A stretch of DNA of 36,670 nucleotides. It comes from a virus. The notes beneath the pieces are model-generated. The model saw nothing but the letters and a program-made list of their open reading frames with translations, was not told the origin of the DNA and made no database searches. Positions 3,571 to 20,894 of the stretch are shown piece by piece (positions within the stretch are counted from its first letter, which is position 1; each line of letters opens with the position of its first letter). A program made the position numbers and the translations under genes. The stretch is from positions 1 through 36,670 of IMG/VR virus record IMGVR_UViG_3300045988_060017, one strand, 5' to 3'.

Positions 3571-3616
3571 AAATTGTTAATCGTAGTTAAATACACAAAG
3601 TTTTTTCGGAAAATGT

Positions 3617-6133: not shown

Positions 6134-6156
6134 CAAATATTAAAATAAGTAAAGCG

Positions 6157-6189: not shown

Positions 6190-6223
6190 AATCGAATTAA
6201 AAATCCTATAAAAATTTAAAGAC

Positions 6224-6778
6224 ATGAGTAAAAAATTGATTTTAAAAAATGTGAGATTTTCCTATGTAAGAGTATTCGAGGCCGCTCCGATTATGGACGG
6301 AAATACAAACTATTACAGCGTATCCGTACTTATCCCTAAATCAGACACCAAGCAGGTGAACGAGATTAAGAAGGCCCTCAAAGAATTGGCGGACGAATTT
6401 CTAGCCAACAACCCGAAATTGAAGGGGGTACTTCCGGAAGGTTGGAGAAACCCGCTAACGGACGGAGATAAAAAAGGGGACACAGGGTACGAAGATATGT
6501 GGGTATTGAACGCAAAGAGACAGGAAAAGAACGGTGCCCCTATTGTTATTGACAAATATAAACAACCGATTACGGTTAAAGAAGATATGTATTCAGGTTC
6601 ATGGGGAACCGCATCACTAAGTTTGTTCACGTACTTTAAATCCGCTACTAGTTGCGGAGTCGGTGTCGGGCTTAACGGGATTCAAAAAGTTACAGACGAT
6701 GATCGGTTAGACGGGGGTGCAAGCGTTAACGACTTCGATTATGAAGGAGGAGAAAGCGGTTTAAGTGATTTTGAATAA
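6224..6778 (+). CDS. Single-stranded DNA-binding protein, DUF2815-like (184 aa)
   Basis: The N-terminus LILKNVRFSYVRVFEA is typical of DUF2815. The acidic C-terminal tail DFDYEGGESGLSDFE resembles an SSB tail. It lies between the nuclease and the polymerase. Confidence 0.7.
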   Translation: MSKKLILKNVRFSYVRVFEAAPIMDGNTNYYSVSVLIPKSDTKQVNEIKKALKELADEFLANNPKLKGVLPEGWRNPLTDGDKKGDTGYEDMWVLNAKRQEKNGAPIVIDKYKQPITVKEDMYSGSWGTASLSLFTYFKSATSCGVGVGLNGIQKVTDDDRLDGGASVNDFDYEGGESGLSDFE

Positions 6779-6837
6779 CATTTTACAGAGTTTTAATTTT
6801 TATTTATTAACCGATTTTATTTTATAACAAATGTGCG

Positions 6838-6875
6838 AGGTCCGCCCGAGTAGAAGCGGGTGGGCCTTATTTTTT
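6838..6875 (+). terminator. Rho-independent terminator
   Basis: aggtccgcccg (6838-6848), loop agtagaa, cgggtgggcct (6857-6867). This gives an 11-bp stem with two G-U pairs, followed by tatttttt. Confidence 0.8.
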
Positions 6876-6894
6876 ACCCCTAAAATTAGAACAA

Positions 6895-8886
6895 ATGATT
6901 AACCCAATTTACATAGACTTTGAGACGTATTCCAGCGAGGATATAAAGACGGGCGGCGCGTACAGATACACGTCCGCAATCGACTTTGAGATACTCCTAG
7001 TAGGTTACGCAGTTGGGGACGGTGATGTAGTTATAGTAGATGTTGCAAACGATGAACTCGAGTGGAGAAGATTTAAAGACCTTATACAGGATGAACGCTA
7101 CACGATAGTAGCGCACAACGCGCAATTTGAAAGATTGTGCCTAAAGGCCTACGGTATTAATATTCCGGCAAAGAGATTCTTATGCACCGCGTCACTGGCA
7201 TTATATGCGGGTTTTCCCGAATCACTTAAAATGGTATCTTCCGCGCTAAATCTGAAAGAAGGAAAGAAGGGAACCGGATTGGTCCTAATAAAATTCTTCT
7301 GCCTTCCACAGCAGGATAAGACCGGAAACACGTACCGTAACTATATGCAGGACTTTCCCGAGAAGGCCGAGGAATTTATAGATTATCTACGTTATGATGT
7401 TCTATCAGAACGCGAGGCATACCATAGATTAGAGTACTGCGGCTTTCCCGAATCGGAAAGGGAAGTATATGCGCTAGACCAATATATTAATGACGCCGGG
7501 ATAAAGATAGATACAGAGCTAGCCACGAATGCGGAGAAGATTAACAACGAGTTTTGCGACGGGCTGAAACACCGCATAAAAGACCTGTACGGAATATCCT
7601 CTCTAAAGTCAACCGCGCAACTGAAGAATTTTTGCCTTATCCGCACCGGAAAGAATTTCGATTCATTCCGGAAAGAGGATATAGACGCTATTATAGAGGA
7701 GTGCAACGACGAACAAGTAGCGGACGTATTAGAATCACGGAAGATTATCAATAAGACCAGCAACGCCAAATATACGTCAATGCTAAATTGCGTATGTCCG
7801 GACGGGCGCGTACATGGATTGTACCGTTACTATGGGGCGGGGCGTACAGGCCGTTTTGCGGGGCGCCTAGTGCAGATGCAGAACCTACCGCGCAATTATA
7901 TAACGGAGCTAGACGCGTGCCGTGATGACGCTAAAAAGAGTGATTTAAGTACGTTCGAAATGTTTTGGGGCGATGCGCCGGGAATGCTTTCCCAACTTAT
8001 CCGCACCGCCTTTATAGCTGATACCGGAAAGATATTTGTAGTTGCGGATTATTCCGCAATCGAGGCGCGCGTATTGGCGGGCCTGGCCCGTGAAGAATGG
8101 CGCCTAGATGCTTTCCGCAATGGAAAGGATATATATGTAGTATCCGCTAGCCGTACATTCAGCCTACCGGAAAATCAGTGCGGCAAAGGTACACATTACA
8201 GGCAGCAAGGAAAGGTAACGGAGTTGGCACTAGGATACGAAGGTTGGGTAGGGGCTATGGAAGTTATGGATTATGAAAAATCAATAGACCCGGCACTATA
8301 CAAGGATATAATACTACGTTGGCGCGACGCTTCCCCACGGATAGTCGAATTTTGGGAAACACTGGATTCAAAGGCGAAACTTTGCATACGTAACAAAAAG
8401 AGGGTAGATGTAATAGTGTACGGTGTATGGGTGTGCGCGTTCGAGTGGTTCACAGAAAACAATTCACTTGCTATCCGGTTACCTTCCGGGCGCCGCCTGT
8501 TTTACCCGGAATGCCGGATAAAGACAAAAACAATAAAGGGTAGGGAAAGAAGTGTTATAACATACATGGGAGTTAACCTTACCGGGAAATGGGGAGAACT
8601 GGACACATACGGCGGAAAGCTGACCGAGAATATAACACAGGCGGTTAGCCGCGATTTGTTAGTACATGGAATGCAAACCATAAGAGAGAGATTTCCGGAT
8701 GTGGATATAGTGGGGCATATACATGATGAGACGGTTAACGAGGTGCCTCTAGACGATTTTGGGGAACCAACCGTAACATTACGGGAGATTTGCCAAGCTA
8801 TGGCGACTACACCGGAATGGGCCGAACCGTTCGGAATACCGTTGAACGCGGAAGGATTTATAAGTAATTACTATAAGAAGGATTAA
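6895..8886 (+). CDS. Family A DNA polymerase with a 3'-5' exonuclease domain and no 5'-3' exonuclease domain (663 aa)
   Basis: Exo motifs IYIDFETYS, HNAQFE and YLRYDV. Pol motif A is VVADYSAIEARVLA, motif B is RQQGKVTELALGYEG and motif C is GHIHDE. Confidence 0.95.
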   Translation: MINPIYIDFETYSSEDIKTGGAYRYTSAIDFEILLVGYAVGDGDVVIVDVANDELEWRRFKDLIQDERYTIVAHNAQFERLCLKAYGINIPAKRFLCTASLALYAGFPESLKMVSSALNLKEGKKGTGLVLIKFFCLPQQDKTGNTYRNYMQDFPEKAEEFIDYLRYDVLSEREAYHRLEYCGFPESEREVYALDQYINDAGIKIDTELATNAEKINNEFCDGLKHRIKDLYGISSLKSTAQLKNFCLIRTGKNFDSFRKEDIDAIIEECNDEQVADVLESRKIINKTSNAKYTSMLNCVCPDGRVHGLYRYYGAGRTGRFAGRLVQMQNLPRNYITELDACRDDAKKSDLSTFEMFWGDAPGMLSQLIRTAFIADTGKIFVVADYSAIEARVLAGLAREEWRLDAFRNGKDIYVVSASRTFSLPENQCGKGTHYRQQGKVTELALGYEGWVGAMEVMDYEKSIDPALYKDIILRWRDASPRIVEFWETLDSKAKLCIRNKKRVDVIVYGVWVCAFEWFTENNSLAIRLPSGRRLFYPECRIKTKTIKGRERSVITYMGVNLTGKWGELDTYGGKLTENITQAVSRDLLVHGMQTIRERFPDVDIVGHIHDETVNEVPLDDFGEPTVTLREICQAMATTPEWAEPFGIPLNAEGFISNYYKKD

Positions 8887-8888
8887 AT

Positions 8889-11270
8889 ATGAATAAGTAC
8901 ACATTGTCGGTTGCAGGTAGTTCAGCGTCTTTAAAATGGTCTACTATCAGATATACGTGGGATGATTTTTTGGAACGCCTCAACCGTGATATACGCAGTA
9001 CGGAGACTATGCGCGATTTTGATAGGCTAGACCGCACGGCGCGCGCCAATCTGAAAGACGTTGGCGGATATATGGCGGGGGAACTTTCCGGCACTAGACG
9101 TCTTAAAAGTGCGGTATTATCACGGTCTATGATAACATTAGACGTTGACTATGCTGACAGTCTTTTTCCTGTGGAGTTTGAGACTAGGTTTCCCGGTGTA
9201 GCAGCCGTTATATACAATACACGTTCAGACCGGGAAAAGAGCAGGCGGTTCCGTGTGGTTATTCCGTTCGCCGAAGAAGTGCAGGACGCGGCGCAATACG
9301 AAGCCGCAGCGCGTAAAATGGCGGAATTGCTAGGTATAGACTTGTTCGACCCTACCACATTCCAAGCCGAACGGATGATGTATTGGCAATCTCTCTCATC
9401 AGACCAACCGAAAGTTTTCGAAGTGTTCGAGGGTGAGCCTATCAGCGCCGAATACCTGTTATCCCTGTACGGGAATAACGAGGAGTGGCGAGATATCCGT
9501 AATTGGGCGTTCAAGTCAGACCAGGAGAAAGAGACACGCGCAATTGTCAGTAAGGCAATGGCGCAGAACCCCCGCGAAAAGGCGGGTCTAGTAGGGGCGT
9601 TTTGCCGGGCTTATTCCGTTCCGGCAGCTATCGAAAAGTACCTTTCGGACGTGTACGAGATAGCGCCGGGAAACGACCGTTACACTTACAAGGCGGGGCA
9701 TAGTGTGGGCGGTATGATAGTATTTGACGACCTATTTTGTTTCTCGTACCACTCCACCGACCCGATATCGGACGGGCACGCATACAACGCATACGACCTT
9801 GTGCGTGTGCATAAGTTCGGGCACCTAGGCAAAGAGGACAGCACAAAGGAGATGAACAAACTGGTTTGCGCGGATAAGGAATGCGTTAAAGACATGGTTA
9901 CGCCGGATGCCGACCTAGACGATTTCGACGATTACGGGGATGCAGTGAAGTCAGATAGCACCAAGGAAGTTACGGAACTTGTGTGGGATTTAGACGGAAA
10001 AGGAAACAAGCAAGTAACAGTTAACAACTTCGTTAACGCCTTCAAGTCCGACCCCCTGTTAAATGGGCTGTTGGCTTATGACATGCTAAAGGAGACGATA
10101 GTATTTACCCGCCCGTCATTCACCGCCAAGGGAAGCAAGAAGGGCGACCTAGTCAATGATACGGATATCTCCATTATCAAGGGCCGCATAGAACGCATGC
10201 ACGGGATATACAATGATGCCAAGCTGAACGACGCGATAGAACAGGTTAGCAGTGATAACGCTTTCCACCCTATCAAATTGTATCTAGAGTCGTTGACATG
10301 GGACGGAGTACCGCGCATTGACACATTTCTAGTTGATTATATGGGGGCCGAGGATAACGCATATACTCGCGAGGCGTTCCGCAAAATGCTGCTCGCAGCC
10401 GTTACCCGCATATACGAGCCGGGGCGAAAGTTCGACACCGCTCTAGTGTTCTATTCCGAGCAGGGGGTAGGAAAGTCTACTCTTATCCAGCGGCTTTCTA
10501 AAGGCTGGTTCAACGACTCGTTAACCAACTTATCCGGTAAAGAGTCATACGAGGCTATTCAATTTGCGTGGCTCGTGGAACTAGCCGAATTATCAGCCCT
10601 AAGAAAATCGGACGTTGAGGCTGTTAAGAACTTCATATCGAAGCGGGAAGATACGTACAGGGGCGCATACGCTAGACGCGTGAAAACTCATAAGAGACAA
10701 TGCGTATTTTTCGGCTCTACCAATGATGACGAATTTCTGAAAGACGCGACCGGAAACAGACGATTTTTTCCCGTGGAGGTGAAACGCACAAGGAAAACCC
10801 GCCTTATATTTGAACCGGAATTTGATGCCATTGTAGACCAACTTTGGGCGGAAGCAATGGAGGGGTACATGTTAGGTGAAGCCCTCACACTATCGGATGA
10901 AGCGGAAGCCATTGCCGGCGGAACGCGCGAGGAGTTCACAGAGCGCACACCGATACAAGGTCTTATAGAGGAATACCTAGATAGACTTTTCCCGGCTGAC
11001 TATGAAGATAGATTCCTAGCGCAACGCCTGGATTTCCTTAACGGTGATTTAGGGGAGGAAGGAACGGAAACTAAAAACTCTTTCAGTCTTATTGAATTAT
11101 GGACGGAAGCACTAGGAAGGCGGAAAGACGAGTACACAGTAGTTAAGGCCCGCGAGCTATCCAACGCGGTAAAGGCGCTGAAAGGGTGGAAGCGCGACAA
11201 GCAGGCCCGGCAGAAAATATACGGCCCGCAGGTTATTTATAGGCGAGTGGGTGCGGGTATTACAAAATAA
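8889..11270 (+). CDS. Primase-helicase: N-terminal AEP (prim-pol-like) domain fused to a VirE/D5-like SF3 helicase (793 aa)
   Basis: AEP-like motifs LDVDY (DxD) and FSYHSTD (sxH). Walker A is SEQGVGKST and Walker B-like is WLVELAEL. It lies directly downstream of the polymerase. Confidence 0.85.
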   Translation: MNKYTLSVAGSSASLKWSTIRYTWDDFLERLNRDIRSTETMRDFDRLDRTARANLKDVGGYMAGELSGTRRLKSAVLSRSMITLDVDYADSLFPVEFETRFPGVAAVIYNTRSDREKSRRFRVVIPFAEEVQDAAQYEAAARKMAELLGIDLFDPTTFQAERMMYWQSLSSDQPKVFEVFEGEPISAEYLLSLYGNNEEWRDIRNWAFKSDQEKETRAIVSKAMAQNPREKAGLVGAFCRAYSVPAAIEKYLSDVYEIAPGNDRYTYKAGHSVGGMIVFDDLFCFSYHSTDPISDGHAYNAYDLVRVHKFGHLGKEDSTKEMNKLVCADKECVKDMVTPDADLDDFDDYGDAVKSDSTKEVTELVWDLDGKGNKQVTVNNFVNAFKSDPLLNGLLAYDMLKETIVFTRPSFTAKGSKKGDLVNDTDISIIKGRIERMHGIYNDAKLNDAIEQVSSDNAFHPIKLYLESLTWDGVPRIDTFLVDYMGAEDNAYTREAFRKMLLAAVTRIYEPGRKFDTALVFYSEQGVGKSTLIQRLSKGWFNDSLTNLSGKESYEAIQFAWLVELAELSALRKSDVEAVKNFISKREDTYRGAYARRVKTHKRQCVFFGSTNDDEFLKDATGNRRFFPVEVKRTRKTRLIFEPEFDAIVDQLWAEAMEGYMLGEALTLSDEAEAIAGGTREEFTERTPIQGLIEEYLDRLFPADYEDRFLAQRLDFLNGDLGEEGTETKNSFSLIELWTEALGRRKDEYTVVKARELSNAVKALKGWKRDKQARQKIYGPQVIYRRVGAGITK

Positions 11271-11274
11271 TGAG

Positions 11275-11282
11275 TATCTTTG
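11275..11282 (+). promoter_or_regulatory. Orphan -7-like box TATCTTTG just after the primase stop codon
   Basis: The octamer is identical to the -7 box of P1-P4. No TTTG lies at the expected -33 position. Confidence 0.3.
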
Positions 11283-11353
11283 CCGCGAGAGAATCAATTA
11301 CTACTCATTCAATTCATCACCAACTACTATTTTAAGGGGTTTACAGTTCAGAA

Positions 11354-11389
11354 AGGAGACGTTGCGAAACGTTTCCTTTTCTTTATTTG
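11354..11389 (+). terminator. Rho-independent terminator
   Basis: aggagacgtt (11354-11363), GCGA tetraloop, aacgtttcct (11368-11377). This gives a 10-bp stem with one G-U pair, followed by tttctttatttg. Confidence 0.85.
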
Positions 11390-11421
11390 TGTTAAATCTA
11401 CAAAGAATTTTCTCAAAGAGT

Positions 11422-11451
11422 TTTGCAGTTCAAAAAGTATCCGTATCTTTG
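11422..11451 (+). promoter_or_regulatory. Early promoter P2: -33 TTTG at 11422-11425, -7 TATCTTTG at 11444-11451
   Basis: gttttgcagttcaaaaagtatccgTATCTTTGcaatgtca is nearly identical to P1. Confidence 0.75.
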
Positions 11452-11493
11452 CAATGTCAATAAGAGATTAATAACCCTTTAAAATTAAAAGAT

Positions 11494-11745
11494 ATGGCAA
11501 CTAAAGTAATAGACGAAAAGAAGAAATTTAGCTACGTAGTGACATTTGACCTGTTCAGACAAACCAATGTTAAGATATCAGTAGGTAATAAGATATACGA
11601 ATTCGTGAACGTAGTCAACGACTATAACACCGCTAACGGGTGTAACACTATCGCGGTTCTGTACGACTTTAAGAGCCGAAAGTACGTAGCCGTAAATATA
11701 CAAGACGAGAAGATTAACAGCAAAGAATGTGTAATAATCAAGTAA
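11494..11745 (+). CDS. Hypothetical protein (83 aa)
   Basis: ATG preceded by the conserved leader ataaccctttaaaattaaaagat, downstream of P2. Confidence 0.65.
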   Translation: MATKVIDEKKKFSYVVTFDLFRQTNVKISVGNKIYEFVNVVNDYNTANGCNTIAVLYDFKSRKYVAVNIQDEKINSKECVIIK

Positions 11746-11756
11746 TCATTAACCGG

Positions 11757-11772
11757 GGCGGGGCGACCCGCC
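11757..11772 (+). other. GC hairpin ggcggg-GCGA-cccgcc, a possible weak terminator or RNA-stability element
   Basis: Perfect 6-bp stem with a GNRA loop, 12 nt after the stop codon. The downstream tract (tataaaac) is not U-rich. Confidence 0.35.
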
Positions 11773-11788
11773 TATAAAACATAATGAC

Positions 11789-11977
11789 ATGAAGATTAAA
11801 GTAACTTATAAGGTTAGCGGAAAACGCACCGTATCCACTGTAATAGAATTAAATGCCGAAAGTATAGCGGACATGCTAAAGGATATACCATTTAATGAAA
11901 TATCCGAAAAGGCAGGGGCCAGAAAGAAGGAAGCGGTAAGATATGGTTATATATCAAAAATTGAGGACCTAGATTAA
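11789..11977 (+). CDS. Hypothetical protein (62 aa)
   Basis: ORF in the single-strand gene array. No motif recognised. Confidence 0.5.
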   Translation: MKIKVTYKVSGKRTVSTVIELNAESIADMLKDIPFNEISEKAGARKKEAVRYGYISKIEDLD

Positions 11978-11989
11978 AGCCATACGGAC

Positions 11990-12088
11990 ATGAAGAAGAA
12001 TATACTTACATTTTTAACGTACCTATTTTGGGCGGTCGCGTTCGTAGCGTTTGTGTTATTATTCTGTGAACCAACAACTAATATATAA
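11990..12088 (+). CDS. Candidate small membrane protein (32 aa), below the ORF-track size cutoff
   Basis: The ORF translates to MKKNILTFLTYLFWAVAFVAFVLLFCEPTTNI: a basic N-terminus and one hydrophobic helix. It fills an otherwise empty 116-nt gap. Confidence 0.4.
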   Translation: MKKNILTFLTYLFWAVAFVAFVLLFCEPTTNI

Positions 12089-12093
12089 AGATT

Positions 12094-12315
12094 ATGTTTG
12101 AGATTTTAAAAGTAACCGTTATATTTGAAAGCGGGGAGGTAGTTAAGTACGTAGGTGACAGTGTTAGGCGCCTTATGGGAACGCCGGATGTATCCCACAT
12201 AGATACGGCACGGAAAATTATATGGGCCCGTATAAAAGACCTCCAAGAAGAACCCCGTAACGAGGCTCTAGGAAGGGTAGAGAGGATTATACTAGCGTAC
12301 AGGGAGAAGGAGTAA
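12094..12315 (+). CDS. Hypothetical protein (73 aa)
   Basis: ORF in the array. No motif recognised. Confidence 0.5.
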   Translation: MFEILKVTVIFESGEVVKYVGDSVRRLMGTPDVSHIDTARKIIWARIKDLQEEPRNEALGRVERIILAYREKE

Positions 12316-12341
12316 AGTACTAATCGTTAAATAATAAGATT

Positions 12342-12623
12342 ATGAGTAACAGAAAGAAACTAAGAGGGACAAGGGACGGCGCCACCCGTATAACGCCGGA
12401 CAAGTCATTTAACGGCCAGTTTATGGGAGTGTACAAATTGGAGGTCTACGATAAGAAGTCGGACAATTGGAACACCCTAGAGGGGTGCAGTAACTTAACG
12501 TGGGGGCGGGCAGTCATAGCCCGTACCAATTACACCGCGCTACGGAGGGAATGCAAGATAGCTAACAATACCGTTATACGGATAGTAAGACCGGGAATCG
12601 ATGAAGGCGAACGAGACGAGTGA
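12342..12623 (+). CDS. Hypothetical protein (93 aa)
   Basis: ORF in the array. It overlaps the VRR-NUC start by 23 nt. Confidence 0.55.
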   Translation: MSNRKKLRGTRDGATRITPDKSFNGQFMGVYKLEVYDKKSDNWNTLEGCSNLTWGRAVIARTNYTALRRECKIANNTVIRIVRPGIDEGERDE

Positions 12624-12915
12624 AAAGGTATTTGAACGTACTTTATCTAAGTACGTCAATGACAATGGAGGGATAGCAGTAAAATTGCTATCCCAATTTG
12701 TTAACGGGCTGCCCGACCGTATGTACCTGTTGCCCGGCGGGCACGCGCTGTTTGTTGAATTCAAGAGTACAGGAAAGAAGCCCACCAAGATACAGGAACA
12801 TATTATAGACCGGATACGAAAGGTAGGATTTTCCGTTATGGTAGTGGACAGTCCGGAAGCATACAAAAACGCTGTTTTGTACATTGATAAGTTACTAGGT
12901 GTTAATATCGAATGA
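12601..12915 (+). CDS. VRR-NUC domain nuclease (104 aa)
   Basis: GLPDRMYLLPGGHALFVEFKSTGKKPTKIQ matches the VRR-NUC core (PD...ExK, then Q). Confidence 0.8.
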   Translation: MKANETSEKVFERTLSKYVNDNGGIAVKLLSQFVNGLPDRMYLLPGGHALFVEFKSTGKKPTKIQEHIIDRIRKVGFSVMVVDSPEAYKNAVLYIDKLLGVNIE

Positions 12916-12950
12916 ACTGATATAACGAATGTTAATGTTTTGACAAAAAG

Positions 12951-12981
12951 TTTGGTAGTCCGGAAAGTATGCGTATCTTTG
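12951..12981 (+). promoter_or_regulatory. Early promoter P3: -33 TTTG at 12951-12954, -7 TATCTTTG at 12974-12981
   Basis: gtttggtagtccggaaagtatgcgTATCTTTGaagtgtca is the third copy of the cassette, with a 19-nt spacer. Confidence 0.7.
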
Positions 12982-13019
12982 AAGTGTCAAAAGGAAATAA
13001 CCACTTAAAATTAGAAGAT

Positions 13020-13160
13020 ATGAAAAAGTATTATGTAAATGGAAAAGAGATATCAGAACAAGAAGCGAAAGCTATTGAGGCAAAGAACGCCGAATATATG
13101 GGTAGCACCGATTTTTCCCTGTGGGCTAAATGCGAATTCATTACAGTAATAACCCTTTAA
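13020..13160 (+). CDS. Hypothetical small protein (46 aa); start moved from the ORF-track position 12969
   Basis: ATG 12969 lies inside the P3 -7 region. ATG 13020 is in frame and is preceded by the conserved leader ataaccacttaaaattagaagat. Confidence 0.5.
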   Translation: MKKYYVNGKEISEQEAKAIEAKNAEYMGSTDFSLWAKCEFITVITL

Positions 13161-13171
13161 AATTAGGATAT

Positions 13172-13333
13172 ATGGAAACTAAAACTTATAATTATTGTGT
13201 ATTATTTGGAATAACGAACCCCGTCATGGAAACATGGTATGACTACACCGAGAGTGCAGCAAGAAGAAAAGCCGAAAGACGTGCTAAGAAGTGGAATTGT
13301 GAAGTACGAATTTTCAAAGAATTATCTATATAA
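13172..13333 (+). CDS. Hypothetical small basic protein (53 aa); start moved from 13130
   Basis: ATG 13172 is in frame and is preceded by the conserved leader ataaccctttaaaattaggatat. Confidence 0.5.
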   Translation: METKTYNYCVLFGITNPVMETWYDYTESAARRKAERRAKKWNCEVRIFKELSI

Positions 13334-13334
13334 T

Positions 13335-13643
13335 ATGAAGTACCAACAAGGAGACCTAACCGAGGCGGATATAAAGGCCCGCTGTCGGTTTTGGAACAAG
13401 AGGGGGTTTTTTGGAACCCCTACAAAGAAGGAGCTAGAAAAACGTTCCAAGAAAATGCGGGAGCTATTATCCGCTATTAAGGATACGACCTATGAGGAAA
13501 TAACGGCGATACGGTGTACAATGTGGTTAAGGCATTTAAATAAGAAACAACTCATTGTTCGGAATGCTGATAAAAAAGACCTAGACTATGCTTTGCAGAT
13601 TGCCCCTAAGACATTTAAAGTAAACCAATCAAATAACATTTAA
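13335..13643 (+). CDS. Hypothetical protein (102 aa); start moved from 13239
   Basis: ATG 13335 is in frame and lies 1 nt after the upstream stop (13331-13333). This removes a 95-nt overlap. Confidence 0.5.
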   Translation: MKYQQGDLTEADIKARCRFWNKRGFFGTPTKKELEKRSKKMRELLSAIKDTTYEEITAIRCTMWLRHLNKKQLIVRNADKKDLDYALQIAPKTFKVNQSNNI

Positions 13644-13654
13644 AAATTAGAATC

Positions 13655-14080
13655 ATGAAAAAGTTAATCGGTATTTTAGCAGTAGTTTTGTTCTCAGTTA
13701 GCGCAATGGCGCAAGTATCTAGCCAGTCCGGGAAATTGGAGGTTATGAAGTCGTTCCGCCTAGGTACATGTAAGTTAGTGAAGGTAGAAAAGGAGGGCGC
13801 GGTAACGTATCAGATAACCGCCCTTATAGCGAATGCAGCGTCACACGAGTTAGACATACCATTGGGGGATAAAGACGCCGCTACGGCTCTTTTGACGTCC
13901 CTAGCGGAATACAAACCGACAAAGGGTGAGATAGTGAACCTTAACAACGTCGACGGAAATACGGCTACTTATTCCAAGTTCAACGGAACGTGGCAGATAT
14001 ACGGACGCGGAAAGACATTGTACATTGCAGTGAGCCGGAAAGAACTATTAACAATGTCCGAAATCATAGGGGGTAAATAA
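13655..14080 (+). CDS. Secreted/periplasmic protein with a Sec signal peptide (141 aa)
   Basis: MKKLIGILAVVLFSVSAMA|QVSSQ has the n-h-c structure with an AxA-like cleavage site. Confidence 0.65.
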   Translation: MKKLIGILAVVLFSVSAMAQVSSQSGKLEVMKSFRLGTCKLVKVEKEGAVTYQITALIANAASHELDIPLGDKDAATALLTSLAEYKPTKGEIVNLNNVDGNTATYSKFNGTWQIYGRGKTLYIAVSRKELLTMSEIIGGK

Positions 14081-14081
14081 C

Positions 14082-14534
14082 ATGGAGGAAAGAGATTACA
14101 ACGAGGTGTACGACAACGGTAACAACCTGTTAGAAGTGCTTGTACACATAGGAGATAACAAGGTTTTTGCCGCAACGAATAGCAATACTAGAGAAAGGAA
14201 AGTATTCCGTACCTTACAGGATTTAGAGTCATTCCTATATAACGGAGGATACCACATAACTATATCGGACAGGCGCCAAATGTTTATGCGCAATATGGAG
14301 CCGAACCGTCTTCGAAATGTGGTGTGGGTAACAACACGCCTAGACGGAAGCCCTAGAGAGGTTTGTTTCCTTCATGGTGGAAAGATTAGAACCGGGTGGG
14401 TGTTAGGAGTCAACGAGGACAACGATAATGAATTGACGGTTAGAAGTAACGTTGCCGGGGCGTACACCAATACAGAAGGTTATAAAACCGTATCTGTGCC
14501 TATCGAGAACATAGTAATACTATCAGATTATTAA
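14082..14534 (+). CDS. Hypothetical protein (150 aa)
   Basis: ORF in the array, starting 1 nt after the upstream stop. Confidence 0.6.
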   Translation: MEERDYNEVYDNGNNLLEVLVHIGDNKVFAATNSNTRERKVFRTLQDLESFLYNGGYHITISDRRQMFMRNMEPNRLRNVVWVTTRLDGSPREVCFLHGGKIRTGWVLGVNEDNDNELTVRSNVAGAYTNTEGYKTVSVPIENIVILSDY

Positions 14535-14545
14535 TATACTAAGAC

Positions 14546-14980
14546 ATGGAAGATTTTAATAAGAAACTTAAAGTAGACCGTATCAATCAGTTCGGGCACC
14601 TCGTTAAGTCTATGGCGAACGGTACGCCCGCTGAAGGGTACACAATCGGAGACGCTATAAAGGCGCTGCCGGATAACCTGCAACAATTCTTGTTGTCAGA
14701 GGTACCCGACCGGATAATACGGAAAGAGCACACTCGTAGAGGCCTCAACATCCTAGAAGATACCACGCTGCTTGCAGGTGTAGACGAACTACGGGAGACC
14801 TACACGGACGAGGTTTTCAAGGCCAACCCGGCTAGAGAGTTGTGCAACCTGTTAGGCATCAGGTCGGCCTTTCCCGATATACTAGATGTAATAGACGAGG
14901 TTCTGAAATTGTTCCCGGAAAGACTGACACGTAAAGACCTTGCTAACGAGTTATACATGGACGAGATAGGAATGAGATAA
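14546..14980 (+). CDS. Hypothetical protein (144 aa)
   Basis: ORF in the array. No motif recognised. Confidence 0.6.
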   Translation: MEDFNKKLKVDRINQFGHLVKSMANGTPAEGYTIGDAIKALPDNLQQFLLSEVPDRIIRKEHTRRGLNILEDTTLLAGVDELRETYTDEVFKANPARELCNLLGIRSAFPDILDVIDEVLKLFPERLTRKDLANELYMDEIGMR

Positions 14981-15002
14981 TAACGATTTAAATTATATAG
15001 CG

Positions 15003-15227
15003 ATGAAAAGATTTTATTATGAAGTGGGCGAAGTATTCAGAAAGGACCGAAAAAGATATGTAGTTAAAGAAGCCCCGCACGGAACTTGCAAAGGATGTGA
15101 TTTTTACAGGCTGAAACCGAACGGGCACCCGGAATGTATAGGAATGGACTACGCGTGCGATATAGATTACCGGGATGATAATAAGAGTGTTGTTTTTTCG
15201 GAACTAGGAAATGCTACGAAGGACTAA
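15003..15227 (+). CDS. Small 4-Cys (zinc-ribbon-like) protein, paralogue of 17652..17867 (74 aa)
   Basis: The pattern is ..Y.VKEAPHGTCKGCDFY....GHPEC......AC, i.e. C-x2-C-x12-C-x6-C. It shares the 'CKGCxF' core with the 71-aa ORF. Confidence 0.6.
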   Translation: MKRFYYEVGEVFRKDRKRYVVKEAPHGTCKGCDFYRLKPNGHPECIGMDYACDIDYRDDNKSVVFSELGNATKD

Positions 15228-16599
15228 TTTACATAAGTATCAGATAACGGCCGTCAACCATATCGAGGACAACCCGTTCGCCGCGCTCTTTCTTGATATG
15301 GGACTAGGGAAAACCGTGTCCACGTTAACGGCCGTGTCTGACCTTATAGAAAAATTTGAGGTAACTAAGGTATTGGTAGTAGCCCCTAAGAGAGTAGCCG
15401 AAATGACGTGGATAGACGAGGTTAACAACTGGGAGCAGTTAAGGCACCTACGTGTATCTGTCATAAAGGGCACCGCCAGGCAACGCGAGATTGCCGCCCG
15501 GGCGGATGCGGATGTGTACACGGTTAGCCGGGATAATCTCGTGTGGCTCTTACAAATGTGGGGTGGGCAAAAAGTTCCCTATGATATGTTAGTACTTGAC
15601 GAATTAAGTAGTTTCAAGAATCACAGCGCCAAACGTTTCAAGGCTGCAAAGGTTATCCGCCGGAGTTGTTCCCGTGTCGTAGGTCTTACCGGAACGCCTT
15701 CCCCAAATGGACTTATTGACCTGTGGGCGCAAATGTACTTGATAGACGGGGGGCAAAGACTGGGAAAGACAATAACCGATTACCGTGCTAACTACTTCCG
15801 CCCTGGGCGACAGAACGCCGGGATAATATACGAGTACAAGCCACTGGCCGATACCGAGGAAGTGATAGGCGGTAAGATATCCGACATAACATTATCAATG
15901 AAGGCCCTTGACTTCCTGGATATGCCGGAAGTATCCTACATCAACAACTATGTAGAACTATCTCCGAAAGTAAAGAAGGCATACGACAAGTTCGAGGAAG
16001 AACAACTTCTAACACTGCTTGACGCTACCGGGGGCGATTCAAAGGAAATAACCGCTATTAACGCGGCAGCCCTTACAAACAAGCTACTACAATACGCGGG
16101 CGGCGCGGTGTATGATGAAGTACGGGACGTGTACAACGTGCACGACGAAAAGATAGAGACCCTTATAGAAATGGTTGAGGCTGCGAACGGAGCGCCCGTA
16201 CTTGTGGCGTATGCGTTCAAGCACGAGGAGGCCCGGATAATGGAGGCGTTGAAACCGTTCGGGGCTAGAAGGCTTAACACCGTGGATGATGTAAGGGACT
16301 GGAACGAGGGAAAGATTCCCGTACTGGTTACCCACCCGGCGAGCGCGGGCCACGGGCTTAACATGCAGAAGGGCGGAAACCGTATAATATGGTTCAGTGC
16401 TACATGGAGCCTAGAATTATACCAGCAGTTCAACGCGCGTTTGTGGAGGCAGGGACAGAAGAATAGCGTATTTGTTCACCACTTGATAAGCAAGGGAACA
16501 GTAGACGAGCGGGTAATAGACGTGCTTAACAAGAAGGCGACCGCGCAGGACGGGTTAATGAATATAGTTAAGGAACTTATTAAAAAACATAAGATATGA
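15211..16599 (+). CDS. SNF2-family (SF2) helicase/ATPase (462 aa)
   Basis: Motifs seen: LHKYQ (Q motif), DMGLGKT (Walker A), VLDELS (DExx), LTGTP, C-terminal HPASAGHGLNMQ and WRQGQ. Confidence 0.9.
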   Translation: MLRRTNLHKYQITAVNHIEDNPFAALFLDMGLGKTVSTLTAVSDLIEKFEVTKVLVVAPKRVAEMTWIDEVNNWEQLRHLRVSVIKGTARQREIAARADADVYTVSRDNLVWLLQMWGGQKVPYDMLVLDELSSFKNHSAKRFKAAKVIRRSCSRVVGLTGTPSPNGLIDLWAQMYLIDGGQRLGKTITDYRANYFRPGRQNAGIIYEYKPLADTEEVIGGKISDITLSMKALDFLDMPEVSYINNYVELSPKVKKAYDKFEEEQLLTLLDATGGDSKEITAINAAALTNKLLQYAGGAVYDEVRDVYNVHDEKIETLIEMVEAANGAPVLVAYAFKHEEARIMEALKPFGARRLNTVDDVRDWNEGKIPVLVTHPASAGHGLNMQKGGNRIIWFSATWSLELYQQFNARLWRQGQKNSVFVHHLISKGTVDERVIDVLNKKATAQDGLMNIVKELIKKHKI

Positions 16600-17648
16600 A
16601 TGTATTGAGTTTATTCGACGGCATGAGTTGCGGACAAATCGCACTTACCGAACTGGGGTGTTTCCCGGACAAGTACTACGCTTCCGAGGTGGACAAGTTC
16701 GCCATACAGCAGACTATGAGCGTGTTTCCGGACACTATCCAACTAGGGGACGTTACCAAGGTAGATGTATCGCAATTAGATAAGATTGATTTGCTGATAG
16801 GCGGAAGCCCTTGCCAATCGTTTTCATTTGCCGGAAAACAGGTGGGTATGGTTACAACCGATAAGGTAGATATAACCGACTTGCAGACCTACCTAGACCT
16901 CAAGGAAATGGGATTTGAATTCGAGGGGCAATCATATCTATTTTGGGAGTATATGCGCATACTGACAGACATACGGAAGTATAACCCGAACGTCAAGTTC
17001 CTGTTGGAAAACGTAGTTATGGCTAAGAAATGGGAAGCCGTGCTAACCAAGGCTATCGGAGTGGAACCCGTCAAGATTAACAGTAACTTAGTATCCGCAC
17101 AGAACCGGAAAAGATTGTATTGGACTAACATAGCCGAGATACCCCAACCGAAAGACGAAGGTATATTAATCCGTGATATCCTAGAGGACGAAGTAGATGA
17201 AAAATATTATATATCATCTAAAGCCCTTGAGGGTATGGTTAACCACGCCAGGGTTAACGCCGAGAAGGGAAACGGTTTCGGCGCGCGTGTGGTTTCGCCG
17301 GGAGGGAAGGCGAACACGCTTTTGCAAAGGTGTTACAAAGACGGGAAAGATAATCTTATAATAGCTGCCGGCCGTGGAAGGGTGTGCGAGGACGGGGTTA
17401 CTAGGCAGCACCTAGAGCCGAGGAAGGACGGAAAGTCTGATTGTCTCACTACGGTACAGAAAGGAAACCCATTGATTGAGAATCGCAGCACGTTAAGACG
17501 GTTAACGCCTAGAGAGTGCGCACGGTTGCAGACCGTACCGGATTGGTACAAGTGGGTGGTATCTGACACACAGATATACCGGATGTGCGGTAACGGGTGG
17601 ACGGTGAAGGTTATAGAACATATATTGAGTCACTTATTTAAAAACTGA
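16596..17648 (+). CDS. DNA (cytosine-5)-methyltransferase (350 aa)
   Basis: Motif I LSLFDGMSCG, motif IV GGSPCQSFS, motif VI ENV, motif VIII QNRKRLY, motif IX RRLTPRECARLQTVPD and motif X GNGWTV. There is an ATGA overlap with the SNF2 stop. Confidence 0.95.
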   Translation: MNVLSLFDGMSCGQIALTELGCFPDKYYASEVDKFAIQQTMSVFPDTIQLGDVTKVDVSQLDKIDLLIGGSPCQSFSFAGKQVGMVTTDKVDITDLQTYLDLKEMGFEFEGQSYLFWEYMRILTDIRKYNPNVKFLLENVVMAKKWEAVLTKAIGVEPVKINSNLVSAQNRKRLYWTNIAEIPQPKDEGILIRDILEDEVDEKYYISSKALEGMVNHARVNAEKGNGFGARVVSPGGKANTLLQRCYKDGKDNLIIAAGRGRVCEDGVTRQHLEPRKDGKSDCLTTVQKGNPLIENRSTLRRLTPRECARLQTVPDWYKWVVSDTQIYRMCGNGWTVKVIEHILSHLFKN

Positions 17649-17651
17649 ATT

Positions 17652-17867
17652 ATGAACGAAAAGTTTGGATTAACAAAGTTTTCCGCGGGTGATACCAAGG
17701 AGCATGAAGGCGTAACCTACAAGGCGGTACGCCAAGAGCCGTACGAAATGTGCAAGGGGTGTGCGTTCCATAAGAGAGGCGAACCTTGCAAAAGCCCTAG
17801 AGGGTGGTTGTGCTTAGAGGTAATAGAAGGAGAACCGAATGGCTTAATTTTTAAAATAGTAGAATAA
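17652..17867 (+). CDS. Small 4-Cys (zinc-ribbon-like) protein, paralogue of 15003..15227 (71 aa)
   Basis: YEMCKGCAFHKRGEPCKSPRGWLC gives the pattern C-x2-C-x8-C-x7-C. Confidence 0.6.
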   Translation: MNEKFGLTKFSAGDTKEHEGVTYKAVRQEPYEMCKGCAFHKRGEPCKSPRGWLCLEVIEGEPNGLIFKIVE

Positions 17868-18379
17868 TGGAAAAAGAAAAATTCACATCAGAGTATCACG
17901 TAGGGGATACGGTGGCATTGGACAATGAAAGATTTACCTACGTGGGTACACAGTATGACGAACTTAACAGGTGTACCGTACATCTATATGAACCCGTTAA
18001 CGGAAAATCTAAAGAGTATCTGCAAACTAGCGCGGATAATTTTATAGAGTTTTTGTTCAAGGTTCCGGTAAAGGCTAGCAGCATTAACAATCCGGAAGCG
18101 CCGGAGCGTAAACGGTCGTTCACTTCTAAACTGTTCGGGTGGTTCCTTGAGTCCAACCGTTGGAAACATTTCCTATACGCTATCCCGGCGGGCGCGATAA
18201 ACTTTTGGCTCGCTATCGGACTGGCGCTAGGTATGGAATTCAAGGATGCGCAGCACGGCGGTAAATTTGATTGGGTGGACGCTACGTGCACGGCGGTAGG
18301 AGGTTTTGCCGGGGCGGTATTGTCCGGTTGGCTATTGGGCGATTACGTGCTACACTACATTATTAAATTAATATTCTAA
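17867..18379 (+). CDS. Membrane protein: soluble N-terminal domain plus two C-terminal TM helices (170 aa)
   Basis: TAATG overlap at the start. Hydrophobic segments are FLYAIPAGAINFWLAIGLALG and CTAVGGFAGAVLSGWLLG. Confidence 0.6.
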   Translation: MEKEKFTSEYHVGDTVALDNERFTYVGTQYDELNRCTVHLYEPVNGKSKEYLQTSADNFIEFLFKVPVKASSINNPEAPERKRSFTSKLFGWFLESNRWKHFLYAIPAGAINFWLAIGLALGMEFKDAQHGGKFDWVDATCTAVGGFAGAVLSGWLLGDYVLHYIIKLIF

Positions 18380-18390
18380 ATCATAAAGTT

Positions 18391-18705
18391 ATGGCAGACA
18401 TGGAACATTTATTCAGAGAGCAGGAAATGCGGGAGCAGGCTGAGGCAACCGGACGCCCCACGGCGAACGATATTTTCAAGACCGCATTGTACCGCGCGGA
18501 AAAGGCGCAATATAATATGCGCGTGAAGATAGGTAAGGCGGAAGCCGAGGAAGTGGTAATATACGCCGAGAGCGTGCCGAGAAGCCTAAAGAGGGCTACG
18601 GACTTCACGTTTTACCGGAAAAACAATCCGCAAGTACAACTAACATTGACGCGCACCGAGATGTATGCGTTACTTGGAAAGATACGGGAGGCACTGAAAT
18701 TATGA
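18391..18705 (+). CDS. Hypothetical protein (104 aa)
   Basis: ORF in the array. No motif recognised. Confidence 0.55.
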   Translation: MADMEHLFREQEMREQAEATGRPTANDIFKTALYRAEKAQYNMRVKIGKAEAEEVVIYAESVPRSLKRATDFTFYRKNNPQVQLTLTRTEMYALLGKIREALKL

Positions 18706-18845
18706 TTAAGAAGTTTTGCAAATGGATGAGTAGCCCGGAAGATTTGCCCGGGCTAGTAGTGAGAATGTTAACAGCTATTTTAATAACGGTGGTTTGGGCG
18801 TTCTTGCTAGCGCTGATAGCCGCAATAACAATGTGCAGATTATAA
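18702..18845 (+). CDS. Small single-pass membrane protein (47 aa), below the ORF-track size cutoff
   Basis: The ORF translates to MIKKFCKWMSSPEDLPGLVVRMLTAILITVVWAFLLALIAAITMCRL. It has an ATGA overlap with the upstream stop and a TAATG overlap with the downstream start. Confidence 0.6.
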   Translation: MIKKFCKWMSSPEDLPGLVVRMLTAILITVVWAFLLALIAAITMCRL

Positions 18846-19417
18846 TGGGGCAGAAACTAATGGAGTGCAGAAAGAAACCGCTAGAGTTCGTAATACAAGA
18901 CCTAGCCACGATACTGAATGTAAATGAGTTCTTTCTATTCAAGTTCTGCAAGGAGAACGGGATATATTACAGGAAGGCTAAAAATTTCCCTTACCACTTG
19001 GTAAAGGCAATGGAGATTTGCGAGGTGATTCCAAAATTAAGAAGGGAGATAGCTACGGTACGAGACGACCGGAACACGAGAACGGAGCCAAACCGGATAC
19101 CAACTATTGAGACCCTATTTATCAAGGACAACGAAAAGACCAAGCTAGACAAGTTCAATATGGAGGATATCCCTAGGATATGGTGCCCGGGAACGGGGAC
19201 GGTTAATTACCGAGGCAGGGTAGAATCAAATGTAATATACCGCCTTAACTATTATAAGGACGGAACCGTATCACTAGACATGTGGAAATGGTCGTTCCAT
19301 AAGTGGGAAATGGTGGAACCGTGCAGGGCGCTAAGGAATCGTAAGGAAATTTTACGCGAATGGGCAGGCAAACATAGCTTTATAGCGAGGGATAAAGACG
19401 GTAAAGTAGTCGAATAG
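18845..19417 (+). CDS. Hypothetical protein, last gene of the early arc (190 aa); start moved from TTG 18794
   Basis: ATG 18845 is in frame and coupled to the small membrane ORF. The N-terminal segment LEFVIQDLATILNVNEFFLFKFCKENGI is weakly HTH-like. Confidence 0.55.
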   Translation: MGQKLMECRKKPLEFVIQDLATILNVNEFFLFKFCKENGIYYRKAKNFPYHLVKAMEICEVIPKLRREIATVRDDRNTRTEPNRIPTIETLFIKDNEKTKLDKFNMEDIPRIWCPGTGTVNYRGRVESNVIYRLNYYKDGTVSLDMWKWSFHKWEMVEPCRALRNRKEILREWAGKHSFIARDKDGKVVE

Positions 19418-19420
19418 CTG

Positions 19421-19672
19421 AAAAAACTTTCTTCTCAAATTTCTATGTTATTACAATTTTAGTGATGACACAAAGATTTTGAGAGGAAAGTTTTTTCTCA
19501 TTTTATTAACATTTTAGGTTAATTGATACTAAATCGTTGTAAACAATATTTTTTGAGAGACAATTTGAAAATAACGTTTTTCGGGCAAAAAGAGTGTTTT
19601 AAAGGATATTGAGAGAAAAGTTTTTTGAGAGAAAATATACAATCAGCCGTTTTACTCATTTCTTCTCAAAAA
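19421..19672 (+). repeat. Cluster of six TTTGAGA(G/A)(G/A)AAAG(TTTTTT)-type iterons in both orientations
   Basis: Minus-orientation copies are at 19421-19439 and 19658-19674. Plus-orientation copies are at 19478-19496, 19549-19561, 19608-19626 and 19621-19636. 19421-19439 and 19478-19496 form a 19-bp inverted repeat with one G-U position. Confidence 0.8.
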
Positions 19673-19690
19673 AGTGTACTAAAAGGTTTT

Positions 19691-20060
19691 ACAATTCTGT
19701 TTTATCTGTGACACTTATCAATGACGCGTAAAGCGCTGATTATCAAGCTACAAACTTTTTGCTGTCACAGGTAAAGATTTTTCATCAGTGACACGTAACT
19801 GACTGATATTTATATAGTTATATATAGTGTAATAGATGTAATAGATGATTTGTATAGAGATAAAAATGAATGATTTTAGATTAGTGATTTGATATATATT
19901 AACTGATATTAATTAATATAAAATCAAAGGTGTTATTTTCGTATTTTTACCTTCCAGGGAAATATCAATTACATCTGTGACACTGGCTGTAACTCGCTGT
20001 GTCACTGCACGTTACGTGTCATTCTTCATCTGTGACACATCTATGACATCTATTACACCC
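19691..20060 (+). repeat. Non-coding iteron module, copy B, a direct repeat of 3221-3570. It carries seven CTGTGACAC-type sites.
   Basis: Sites are ctgtgacac 19706-19714, ctgtcacag 19762-19770, cagtgacac 19786-19794, ctgtgacac 19975-19983, ctgtgtcac 19997-20005 (inverted), ctgtgacac 20030-20038 and ctatgacat 20041-20049. It shares blocks with copy A. Confidence 0.9.
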
Positions 20061-20138
20061 CTGTGTTTCGAGACGTTAAGTTGCTGTAAAACAGATAGTT
20101 ACGGTACGTAAACCACGATTATAGGCATTTAGCGCATA

Positions 20139-20164
20139 TTTGAGGTAGGAATGTAGTATATTTG
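20139..20164 (+). promoter_or_regulatory. Candidate late promoter: TTTG at 20139-20142, -7 TATATTTG at 20157-20164
   Basis: The TAnnTTTG box lies 28 nt upstream of the terS ATG. The spacer to the TTTG is only 14 nt, which is suboptimal. Confidence 0.45.
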
Positions 20165-20192
20165 CTGTCAATAATTAAGAATCAATTTATGT

Positions 20193-20894
20193 ATGAGTAA
20201 AACAGATAAGAACAAGGATACGGGGAAGCCCGTGCCGGAGGTGGTAATAGGAAAGGACGGGGTGCCTGTTAACGTTGGTACGAAAGCCCGCCTCGAGAAA
20301 TCCCGCACGCGCCTGAATCCGGTCGACGAAATCGGCTGCAATAGCGTGTTTCAGATATGCCGCCGCCGTTGGGGGCTGACCCCGATTTGGCAGGAGCCGG
20401 ATGACCTTCTAGAAGCATTCAACAGGTACCGAGAGTGGATAGACGCGCACCCTATAATAGTTCACGACGTGGTTAAGTCGGGTAACATGGCGGGAACATT
20501 ACTAGATATCCCGAGAAAGCGCCTTATGTCAGAATCGGACTTTTGCGCGTTCCTTGGAGCGGCGCCCAACTACCTAGCAGACCGCAGGCGCATATATGAA
20601 TCCAACTACGAAGAGTTCGGCCTAGAGGCTTCCAAGGGCTTCGCTGAAGCTATCGACAATATCCGTATGATGATATTCCAAGATATGGACGCGGGCGCCG
20701 CCTCGCAGGCGTTCGACCCTACGTACATCCGCTCTTTGCGCGGGCTGAAAACGGCACTTGACTACACATCCGGTGGCAAGGAGATTAAGGGAGGCCTCAC
20801 AATACTGGTTTCAGACCCTAGGACGGCATCTAGAGTCCAAAAGCTAAAGGACTTCAAGAAAGAGCACAAAACGTCAGAAAACGAAGGAAAATAG
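20193..20894 (+). CDS. terS: Putative terminase small subunit (233 aa)
   Basis: It lies immediately upstream of terL. The segment RLMSESDFCAFLGAAPNYLADRRR resembles the HTH-like 'gl..fLGis..tl..y' region of small terminases. Confidence 0.5.
   Translation: MSKTDKNKDTGKPVPEVVIGKDGVPVNVGTKARLEKSRTRLNPVDEIGCNSVFQICRRRWGLTPIWQEPDDLLEAFNRYREWIDAHPIIVHDVVKSGNMAGTLLDIPRKRLMSESDFCAFLGAAPNYLADRRRIYESNYEEFGLEASKGFAEAIDNIRMMIFQDMDAGAASQAFDPTYIRSLRGLKTALDYTSGGKEIKGGLTILVSDPRTASRVQKLKDFKKEHKTSENEGK

Follow-up and report, generated by a model that had tools for sequence, protein, structure and literature searches.

What is the function of a cluster of short repeats at the boundary between the early and late genes of a gut phage? 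The question is raised by IMG/VR record IMGVR_UViG_3300045988_060017, analysed here over its whole length of 36,670 nt (the window), an essentially complete, circularly assembled phage genome in which every gene lies on the plus strand. Between the last early gene (g190, 18845-19417) and a repeat module referred to as copy B, six copies of a short motif occupy a stretch of 26% GC. An earlier note, made from the letters alone, had described them as protein-binding iterons and as a candidate packaging-recognition region, remarking that the first inverted pair could also form a terminator or a processing hairpin. The answer preferred here, to which we give somewhat less than an even chance, is an element of two layers, in which the first inverted pair would serve as the early terminator or 3' hairpin and the other four copies would be recognised by a protein at the early/late boundary.

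The array and the hairpin at the end of the early genes

With at most one mismatch, TTTGAGARRAAAG is matched five times in the whole window, at 19427(-), 19478(+), 19608(+), 19624(+) and 19658(-), every match falling within 19427-19670. By chance, 0.31 matches are expected from whole-window shuffles and 0.017-0.049 from local shuffles at 26-30% GC, where five were reached in 0 of 2000. A sixth, degenerate copy at 19552-19564 (TTTGAGAGACAAT) keeps just the 5' core T6GAGAG. Elsewhere in the window there are only two matches with two mismatches, which is the chance level, and the stretch upstream of copy A, the twin of copy B, is coding sequence. The six copies named in the earlier note are thus borne out, as are their orientation, with the outer two on the minus and the inner four on the plus strand (- + + + + -), and the lack of a counterpart before copy A. 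Its statement that most copies are followed by a T-run needs correction, a T6 run coming directly after copies 2 and 4 only. The array is made up as follows:

19420-19439, minus strand: left arm of the first inverted repeat (IR1), A6 and then motif copy 1 (TTTGAGAAGAAAG on the minus strand); invariant in the lineage, co-varying with the right arm
19440-19477, plus strand: interior of IR1, with further short helices and an apical stem-loop
19478-19497, plus strand: right arm of IR1, motif copy 2 (TTTGAGAGGAAAG) and then the T6/U6 tract
19549-19564, plus strand: motif copy 3, degenerate (TTTTTTGAGAGACAAT); T6GAGAG core invariant or nearly so in 11 relatives
19605-19620, plus strand: motif copy 4 (ATATTGAGAGAAAAG), first unit of a 16-bp tandem pair
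19621-19636, plus strand: motif copy 5 (TTTTTTGAGAGAAAAT), second tandem unit and left arm of the second inverted repeat (IR2)
19658-19673, minus strand: motif copy 6 (plus strand ATTTCTTCTCAAAAAA), right arm of IR2; invariant in the lineage, absent in the BC669P3-like and BO1-like lineages

The first inverted pair, described in the earlier note as a 19-bp repeat, spans 19420-19497. Its arms of 20 nt are 95% complementary with one G·T and stand 38 nt apart; the left one begins 3 nt past the stop codon (19415-19417), and a T6 run closes the right one. The sense strand of 19405-19520 folds at -36.2 kcal/mol (z = -6.5), with a lower stem of 20 bp and an interior that is also paired, compared to -26.7 kcal/mol for the antisense strand of this region, which is 9.5 kcal/mol weaker. 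The equivalent of IR1 in phage BC669P3 folds at -32.1 kcal/mol (z = -4.5) despite a different interior sequence.

The relatives sampled comprise about 40 IMG/VR loci, found via TerL, and about 20 GenBank loci, which TerL identity divides into four lineages. Across 15 distinct aligned sequences, pairing in the 20-bp stem amounts to 99.3%, compared to 44-62% in control registers slid by 1-3 columns. Three of its pairs are altered on both sides, as seen in the change from C-G to U-A at two adjacent positions between lineages, and every one-sided change results in G·U on the sense strand, where the opposite strand would read C·A. The stem is preceded by A6 and directly followed by U6, the U-tract being invariant in 15 relatives. 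The interior pairs are retained in both lineages despite their difference in sequence, with two singleton changes breaking apical pairs, and this inner structure seems less well supported than the main stem. In all Bacteroides caccae phage isolates, IR1 is the one constant element, the other copies varying from 1 to 5. In addition, all other lineages carry a strong hairpin with a U-run straight after the stop codon of the g190 homologue (-19 to -40 kcal/mol), and in one sister phage the hairpin at this position is a 31-bp AU-rich stem of comparable style.

Because IR1 occupies the slot where other lineages carry canonical terminators, it is likely to be the early terminator. It combines a stable hairpin on the transcribed strand, an immediate U-tract, a location at the end of a transcription unit (co-directional genes from 3864) and a pairing that is maintained in evolution; judging from the sequence, an early-operon terminator or 3' hairpin is the most likely role. 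A scan of the window for the terminator consensus, restricted to loops of 3-8 nt, gave no other candidate after the early block and did not call IR1 itself. The remark on a terminator or processing hairpin is the best-supported part of the earlier note, through the covariation, the strand-specific G·U, the U-tract and the match in position to the terminators of sister lineages.

Several points weigh against this assignment. A textbook terminator has a GC-rich stem of 5-14 bp and a loop of 3-8 nt, unlike IR1, where only 6 of the 20 stem pairs are G-C, the interior spans 38 nt and the U6 is able to pair with the A6 flank. A hairpin for RNase III-type processing or for stability is equally compatible with these features. 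The compensatory changes perhaps amount to 3-4 independent events, and part of the pattern might also stem from gene conversion from arm to arm or from a symmetric protein site, the strand bias of G·U being the sole argument specific to RNA.

Regarding transcription of the spacer, no TAnnTTTG -7 box is present between 19376 and 20157 on either strand, therefore it would be transcribed, if at all, only by read-through. Promoters inside the array are ruled out by the same lack of a Bacteroides -7 box, and matches of the sigma-70 type, which is not applicable to Bacteroides, are at chance level. An Rfam search of 19000-20400 in E-value mode returned just chance look-alikes of plant and animal microRNA hairpins, far under the gathering scores, and the array holds no conserved small open reading frame.

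In the proposed mechanism, the first inverted pair would be transcribed as the tail of the early polycistronic RNA and would fold into an AU-rich hairpin with its 20-bp lower stem, folded interior, A6 5' flank and U6 3' tail. It may then act as an intrinsic terminator of early transcription, as its 3'-protective hairpin, or as both, shielding the promoter-less spacer, with the array and the origin-like copy B, as well as the late promoter from early read-through.

The copies outside the hairpin and their candidate binder

The second, imperfect inverted pair of the earlier note is present (19614-19636 / 19658-19680, 78% complementary over 23 nt) and behaves differently from IR1. Its stability does not exceed that of shuffled sequence (z = +0.49) and changes in the left arm go uncompensated, by which IR2 is ruled out as a second hairpin. 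RNAalifold on 19491-19694 likewise finds almost no covariation (covariation term -1.3).

Meanwhile, the four 8-nt cores outside IR1 are 29-31/32 identical to those of a diverged sub-lineage (L007, L011, L014), compared to 61-63% identity in the spacer (Fisher p = 6e-5 to 2e-3; random four-block sets P = 0.0006-0.004). The terminal minus copy, copy 6, is invariant across 11 distinct sequences. These cores are likely to be under purifying selection, and since they are conserved without structure, sequence-specific recognition is suggested, most simply by a DNA-binding protein. The term protein-binding iterons is thus plausible for the four non-hairpin copies.

The motif recurs upstream of terS in related phages. 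About 30 relatives from three lineages (TerL 79-99% identical) have the array at the equivalent position, -1500 to -1240 as counted from terL; it always falls after the last early stop codon and before copy B begins, and its copy number varies. A 17-mer of the motif is multi-copy in IMG/VR only within the lineage of the window phage. The four lineages differ as follows:

Window-like (TerL 96-99%): six-copy layout as in the window, after the last early gene
BC669P3-like (TerL 89-91%): IR1, then 1-5 plus copies, some as perfect 16-bp tandem units (TTTTTTGAGAGAAAAG, four times), without the terminal minus copy
BO1/BKR1-like (TerL 79-80%): an unrelated canonical terminator, then CTTC(TC/GG)AAAAAACTTTGTGAGARAAAAC and a second tandem copy
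L029-like (TerL 76%): a terminator and no array

In more distant family members, the order of last early gene, hairpin with U-run, lineage-specific repeats, iteron or AT-rich module, promoter and terS is retained, with repeat sequences that are unrelated. In Bacteroides phage BT638P4 (OP172722.1; locus L087, 1594-1764), about eight tandem 23-bp units (AAATCGGTTCGATGGAACTAGGA) abut the late -7 box TACCTTTG and terS. In Parabacteroides phage PM116P4 (OP172826.1; locus L085, 1731-1831), a canonical terminator is followed by a perfect inverted repeat of 24 bp (AAAATTTGGTACACACGACATTTT) with arms 53 nt apart; its architecture is similar to that of IR1 and its sequence is unrelated.

Two proteins encoded next to the array are considered as binders:

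18845-19417, plus strand: g190, last early gene, 190 aa; candidate array binder
20193-20894, plus strand: terS, 233 aa; phrog_606 at 2.8e-6 and a weak GP3_package match; alternative candidate binder

In every family member examined, the early genes end with a g190 homologue, after which comes the large non-coding region. The g190 protein has no Pfam or PHROG match at E<=0.01, nothing significant in NCBIfam and nothing in a sequence search of the PDB; a weak ANT/KilAC match covers residues 16-50 (E=0.088). The AlphaFold2 (AF2) model, with a predicted local distance difference test (pLDDT) score of 78, has an N-terminal beta-alpha-alpha-beta-beta domain, whose matches to the BldC and RacA winged helices are local and non-significant, and two AF2 models gave no Foldseek match in the PDB at E<=0.001. 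A profile search of 1.8 billion proteins returned 8 clusters (50% identity), all in the family of the window phage. In the g190 family alignment, a DDRNTR..P...PT(I/L)E motif is invariant; it falls within a linker, predicted to be flexible, that joins the N-terminal helix-turn-helix-like domain to the C-terminal beta domain.

Co-variation between the array and either protein gives little guidance. In the BO1 lineage, g190 is 80-99% identical and two TerS types are just 67% identical with different putative recognition helices, the array core being common to both, and the array haplotypes follow neither TerS nor g190. Between the window-like and BC669P3-like phages, the array variants show no informative co-variation with TerS or g190, because both helix-turn-helix (HTH) regions are conserved. 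The common core beside two divergent TerS types, where g190 is 80-99% identical, is a hint in favour of g190; both proteins are weak candidates, with g190 ranked ahead of TerS.

For the second layer of the element, the copies at 19549-19564, 19605-19636 and 19658-19673 have TTTGAGAG as their common core and no stable structure, and their number varies, partly as 16-bp tandem units. They would most likely be sites for a phage-encoded, sequence-specific DNA-binding protein at the early/late boundary, for which g190, with its putative N-terminal winged helix, could be the first candidate, as a late-switch regulator in the style of RinA or Alt, and TerS the second.

This second layer also has evidence against it. 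No significant fold or family match marks g190 as DNA-binding (best Foldseek E ~0.3-1.3), the L029 lineage has g190 and TerS without such an array, and the distance of 490-740 bp between array and late promoter is long for an activator. The conservation of the cores could result from continual slippage and homogenisation instead of protein binding. Furthermore, the array of the BO1 lineage comes after a separate canonical terminator, thus the repeats either persist there without a terminator role or are a decaying remnant.

Late promoter, neighbouring repeats and rival explanations

The remaining explanations depend on the elements that surround the array in the window:

3617-3646, 11422-11451, 12097-12127 and 12951-12981: strong early and middle promoters of the Bacteroides type (TTTG-N18-19-TAnnTTTG)
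19670-20060, no strand: repeat copy B, with CATCTGTGACAC and GTGTAATAGATG iterons around a 19% GC core; neighbouring module outside the array, twin of copy A (3200-3575)
20139-20164, plus strand: candidate late promoter, with -7 box TATATTTG (20157-20164) and TTTGAGGTAGGAATG 14 nt upstream of it instead of the usual 18-19; conserved in relatives

The short TTTG spacing of the candidate late promoter would fit dependence on an activator. Late activators bind repeats at about -30 to -80 of their promoter; here, the array ends at 19673 and the -7 box is at 20157-20164. The position of the gene, as the last early gene before terS, fits g190 in all family members and mirrors that of RinA/Alt-type late activators, and a DNA-binding fold is weakly suggested. 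In the three lineages with the array, unlike in L029, the TTTG of the candidate late promoter reads TTTGAGG..., similar to the array core; TTTGAGA is also the ordinary -33 element of the promoter at 12097, by which the motif at the late promoter is a weak lead. Two further observations on promoter regions are an 87-nt duplication, 3586-3672 / 11391-11477, of 78% identity, which spans a TTTG-N18-TATCTTTG promoter and its upstream sequence, and a 37-nt leader and start-codon context (TAATAACCCTTTAAAATTAAAAGATATGG) found four times, at 6199, 11469, 12995 and 13147.

Copies A and B (about 380 bp) have 82% column identity, and both surround a core of 16-19% GC with CATCTGTGACAC and GTGTAATAGATG iterons; the module looks origin-like, by analogy with SPP1 oriL/oriR or P4 ori/crr. 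Both contain direct and inverted CATCTGTGACAC and GTGTAATAGATGTAATAGAT iterons, one copy being upstream of each main transcription block, and the iteron is spelled CATCTATTACAC in the L029 group, CATCTTTTACAC in the BO1 group and GGATAGAT in B. thetaiotaomicron phages. Both are also preceded by a purine-rich arm, a loop, a pyrimidine-rich arm, an A-run and then ACTAAAAnnnTTTACAAT (3168-3227 and 19621-19696). The hairpin at copy A (CCCGAAAAG...CTTTTCGG; -9.8 kcal/mol, z = -1.9) overlaps the last codons of the final late gene.

An explanation by RNA only, which we regard as unlikely, takes the motif as a terminator arm with its U-tract and the extra copies as slippage paralogues resembling variable-number tandem repeats (VNTRs), tolerated in a silent spacer or kept as spare pairing partners, with no dedicated DNA-binding protein. 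It would account for the form of every plus copy as the right arm with a T-run, for the exact 16-bp tandem units that vary from 1 to 4 among near-identical phages, for the greater drift of the inner copies relative to IR1, for the lack of co-variation of TerS and g190 with the array and for the lineages with other terminators that lack the motif. It does not explain why the cores outside IR1 are much better conserved than the flanking spacer, why copy 6 is invariant although IR2 has no structural support, or why two tandem copies persist in the BO1 lineage behind an unrelated terminator. A bolder version of protein recognition, rather doubtful as it stands, is that the four non-hairpin copies, perhaps with the hairpin arms as DNA, act as the operators of a hitherto unrecognised g190-type family of early/late switch proteins in Bacteroides phages, with sites that would be embedded in and ancestral to the early terminator, coupling occupancy with termination.

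Packaging and replication were also weighed. The TerL of the window, with Terminase_3/3C domains (PF04466, PF17288) and a match to TIGR01547 (PBSX family), is closest among solved structures to the SPP1 G2P nuclease (2wbn) and Sf6 gp2; outside Bacteroidales its nearest relatives are in phi11-like staphylococcal phages, and it is of the headful type (PBSX/SPP1/Sf6/phi11). PhageTerm detected no cos ends and no direct terminal repeats (DTRs) in cluster-alpha phages of B. thetaiotaomicron, which belong to the same family, and the authors suggested headful packaging (10.1101/2020.03.04.977157). The TerL of a cluster-alpha phage is 60% identical to that of the window. Because of the headful-type TerL, which is not of the gpA type, and the lack of cos or DTR ends in same-family phages, the analogy to lambda cosB drawn in the earlier note is unsupported; the array, 520-770 bp from terS, also lacks the placement of TerS repeats within about 200 bp of the terS start, and it is unlikely to be a packaging site of the lambda type. 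In the other version, which is quite improbable, the repeats are bound by TerS as a pac site or a part of it, where headful packaging would start before moving right across terS and terL, much as at SPP1 pacL/pacR. A headful-type TerL implies that a pac site must exist somewhere, and the cluster is genome-unique, upstream of terS, and has the mixed orientation and A/T tracts of lambda R1-R3 and SPP1 box a/c; the TerS N-terminus, moreover, differs between lineages with different repeats or none. In P22, Sf6, SPP1 and phi11/80alpha, however, pac is inside or beside terS, and here the array ends 520 bp before the terS ATG at 20193 with copy B in between. The BO1 TerS types, with their different HTH helices, share the array core, its haplotypes do not follow the TerS type, the L029 lineage has a related TerS core and no array, and the constraint on IR1 is of the RNA type, not simple site conservation. 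Several IMG/VR contigs and one GenBank record break nearby, at 19790-20170; copies A and B share exact 20-mers, therefore the clustering of these breaks is repeat-induced and physical termini are ruled out, one record starting with a chimera of the two copies. The origin explanation, which we consider very unlikely, sees the array as an accessory of copy B, its AT-rich 13-16-mers being an unwinding element or secondary initiator sites, and the terminated early transcript may then act as a primer in a T7-like manner. The low GC of the array, its abutment to the iterons and 19% GC core of copy B, a T7-like replication module, a region that is transcriptionally silent except for read-through and the resemblance to oriC 13-mers beside DnaA boxes and to the T7 primary origin downstream of promoters would all suit it. 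However, copy A has the same iterons and AT core without an array, the L029 lineage keeps copy B without one, no initiator protein was identified or linked to the motif, the primase-helicase being at 8889-11270, and the GC skew is uninformative because all genes are on one strand. Of the tandem units expected for origin iterons, the window has one 16-bp pair and relatives have up to four units; the orientation of the array is mixed.

Three contigs end within the neighbouring repeats. The contig of L009 (IMGVR_UViG_3300023486_000035, 1-60) begins in copy A and switches to copy B at a shared GTGTAATAGATGTAATAGAT stretch, and the full-length contigs of L006 and L013 break inside copy B; these ends are either repeat-induced assembly artefacts or real recombination between copies A and B.

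Genome setting and comparison with known systems

By its sequence, the window phage is a ~36.6-kb gut Bacteroides siphovirus of the proposed family 'Bacteroiduroviridae'. Its closest cultured relatives are the B. caccae sewage phages BC669P1-3 and BC679P1-5, with about 77% nucleotide identity across 17-24 kb, which have been placed in this proposed siphovirus family (PMC12694917). The early block (3864 to 19417, about 15.5 kb, co-directional) has the array at its 3' end and holds a T7-like replication set of exonuclease, gp2.5-like single-stranded DNA-binding protein (SSB), PolA and primase-helicase. The late block opens with terS (20193) and terL (20901) and wraps around to 3212, the array being the left end of the 775-bp non-coding gap that separates both blocks. 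The window ends (1-85 / 36601-36670) overlap by 45 nt within a 15-nt coding tandem repeat (GAACCGGAAGTAACA; EPEVT-like repeats), therefore the circular assembly was cut inside a repeat-containing late gene. Another coding tandem repeat, of 18 nt and eight units (AAGAACCGGAACCAGCTA, PEPAKE-like), is at 4648-4834 in the early open reading frame 4377-4961.

In the literature on these phages, no description of termini, non-coding elements, transcription units, packaging signal or origins was found. A terminator followed by a lineage-specific repeat array is by itself ordinary phage anatomy. The 'Bacteroiduroviridae' are siphoviruses of about 36 kb that are common in the human gut and have many cultured members, and the group is used for Bacteroides genetics and microbiome editing; thus the probable end of the early operon, together with a selected array, offers an entry point to the early/late switch, regulation and packaging of this family.

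Among known systems, IR1 is alike to intrinsic terminators with A- and U-tract flanks (bidirectional type) and to the RNase III hairpins of T7 early mRNA in that it immediately follows the final gene of a long co-directional operon, has A6 before and U6 after the stem and pairs on the sense strand with use of G·U. Unlike intrinsic terminators, it has a long AU-rich stem, whose arms are members of a repeat family with four more copies downstream. In the staphylococcal RinA/Ltr and lactococcal TP901-1 Alt systems, the activator gene closes the early region immediately before terS, a position occupied here by g190, and these systems share with the window phage the repeats in variable number and a late promoter without a properly spaced -33 element; BT638P4 is nearer to that layout, its eight 23-bp units abutting the late -7 box. 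The window differs from them in its repeats, which are 490-740 bp upstream of the late -7 box instead of at -30 to -80, and in g190, which has no detectable RinA, ArpU or Alt homology and a weakly predicted DNA-binding fold. Lambda cosB, with its R3-I1-R2-R1 gpNu1 sites beside cosN, is similar in having genome-unique, non-coding repeats of about 13-16 bp in mixed orientation upstream of terS. The window phage departs from it by a TerL of the PBSX/SPP1/Sf6 type, a relative without cohesive ends and a gap of over 500 bp between array and terS; nothing resembling a cosN nick site was identified. SPP1 pac (pacL box a, pacC and pacR box c, bound by G1P) belongs to a phage with a related TerL, as seen by the match of the nuclease domain to 2wbn, and A-tract TerS-binding repeats upstream of terS would suit a ring-wrapping TerS; SPP1 pac overlaps the terS promoter and 5' end, whereas the array is parted from terS by a 390-bp duplicated module. 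Finally, iteron origins (plasmid and lambda ori, SPP1 oriL/oriR, P4 ori/crr) and the oriC 13-mers share with the locus short direct repeats by an AT-rich region and a second iteron family, with two related origin-like modules per genome, here copies A and B; the array differs from them in standing beside one of the two modules only and in being partly constrained as RNA.

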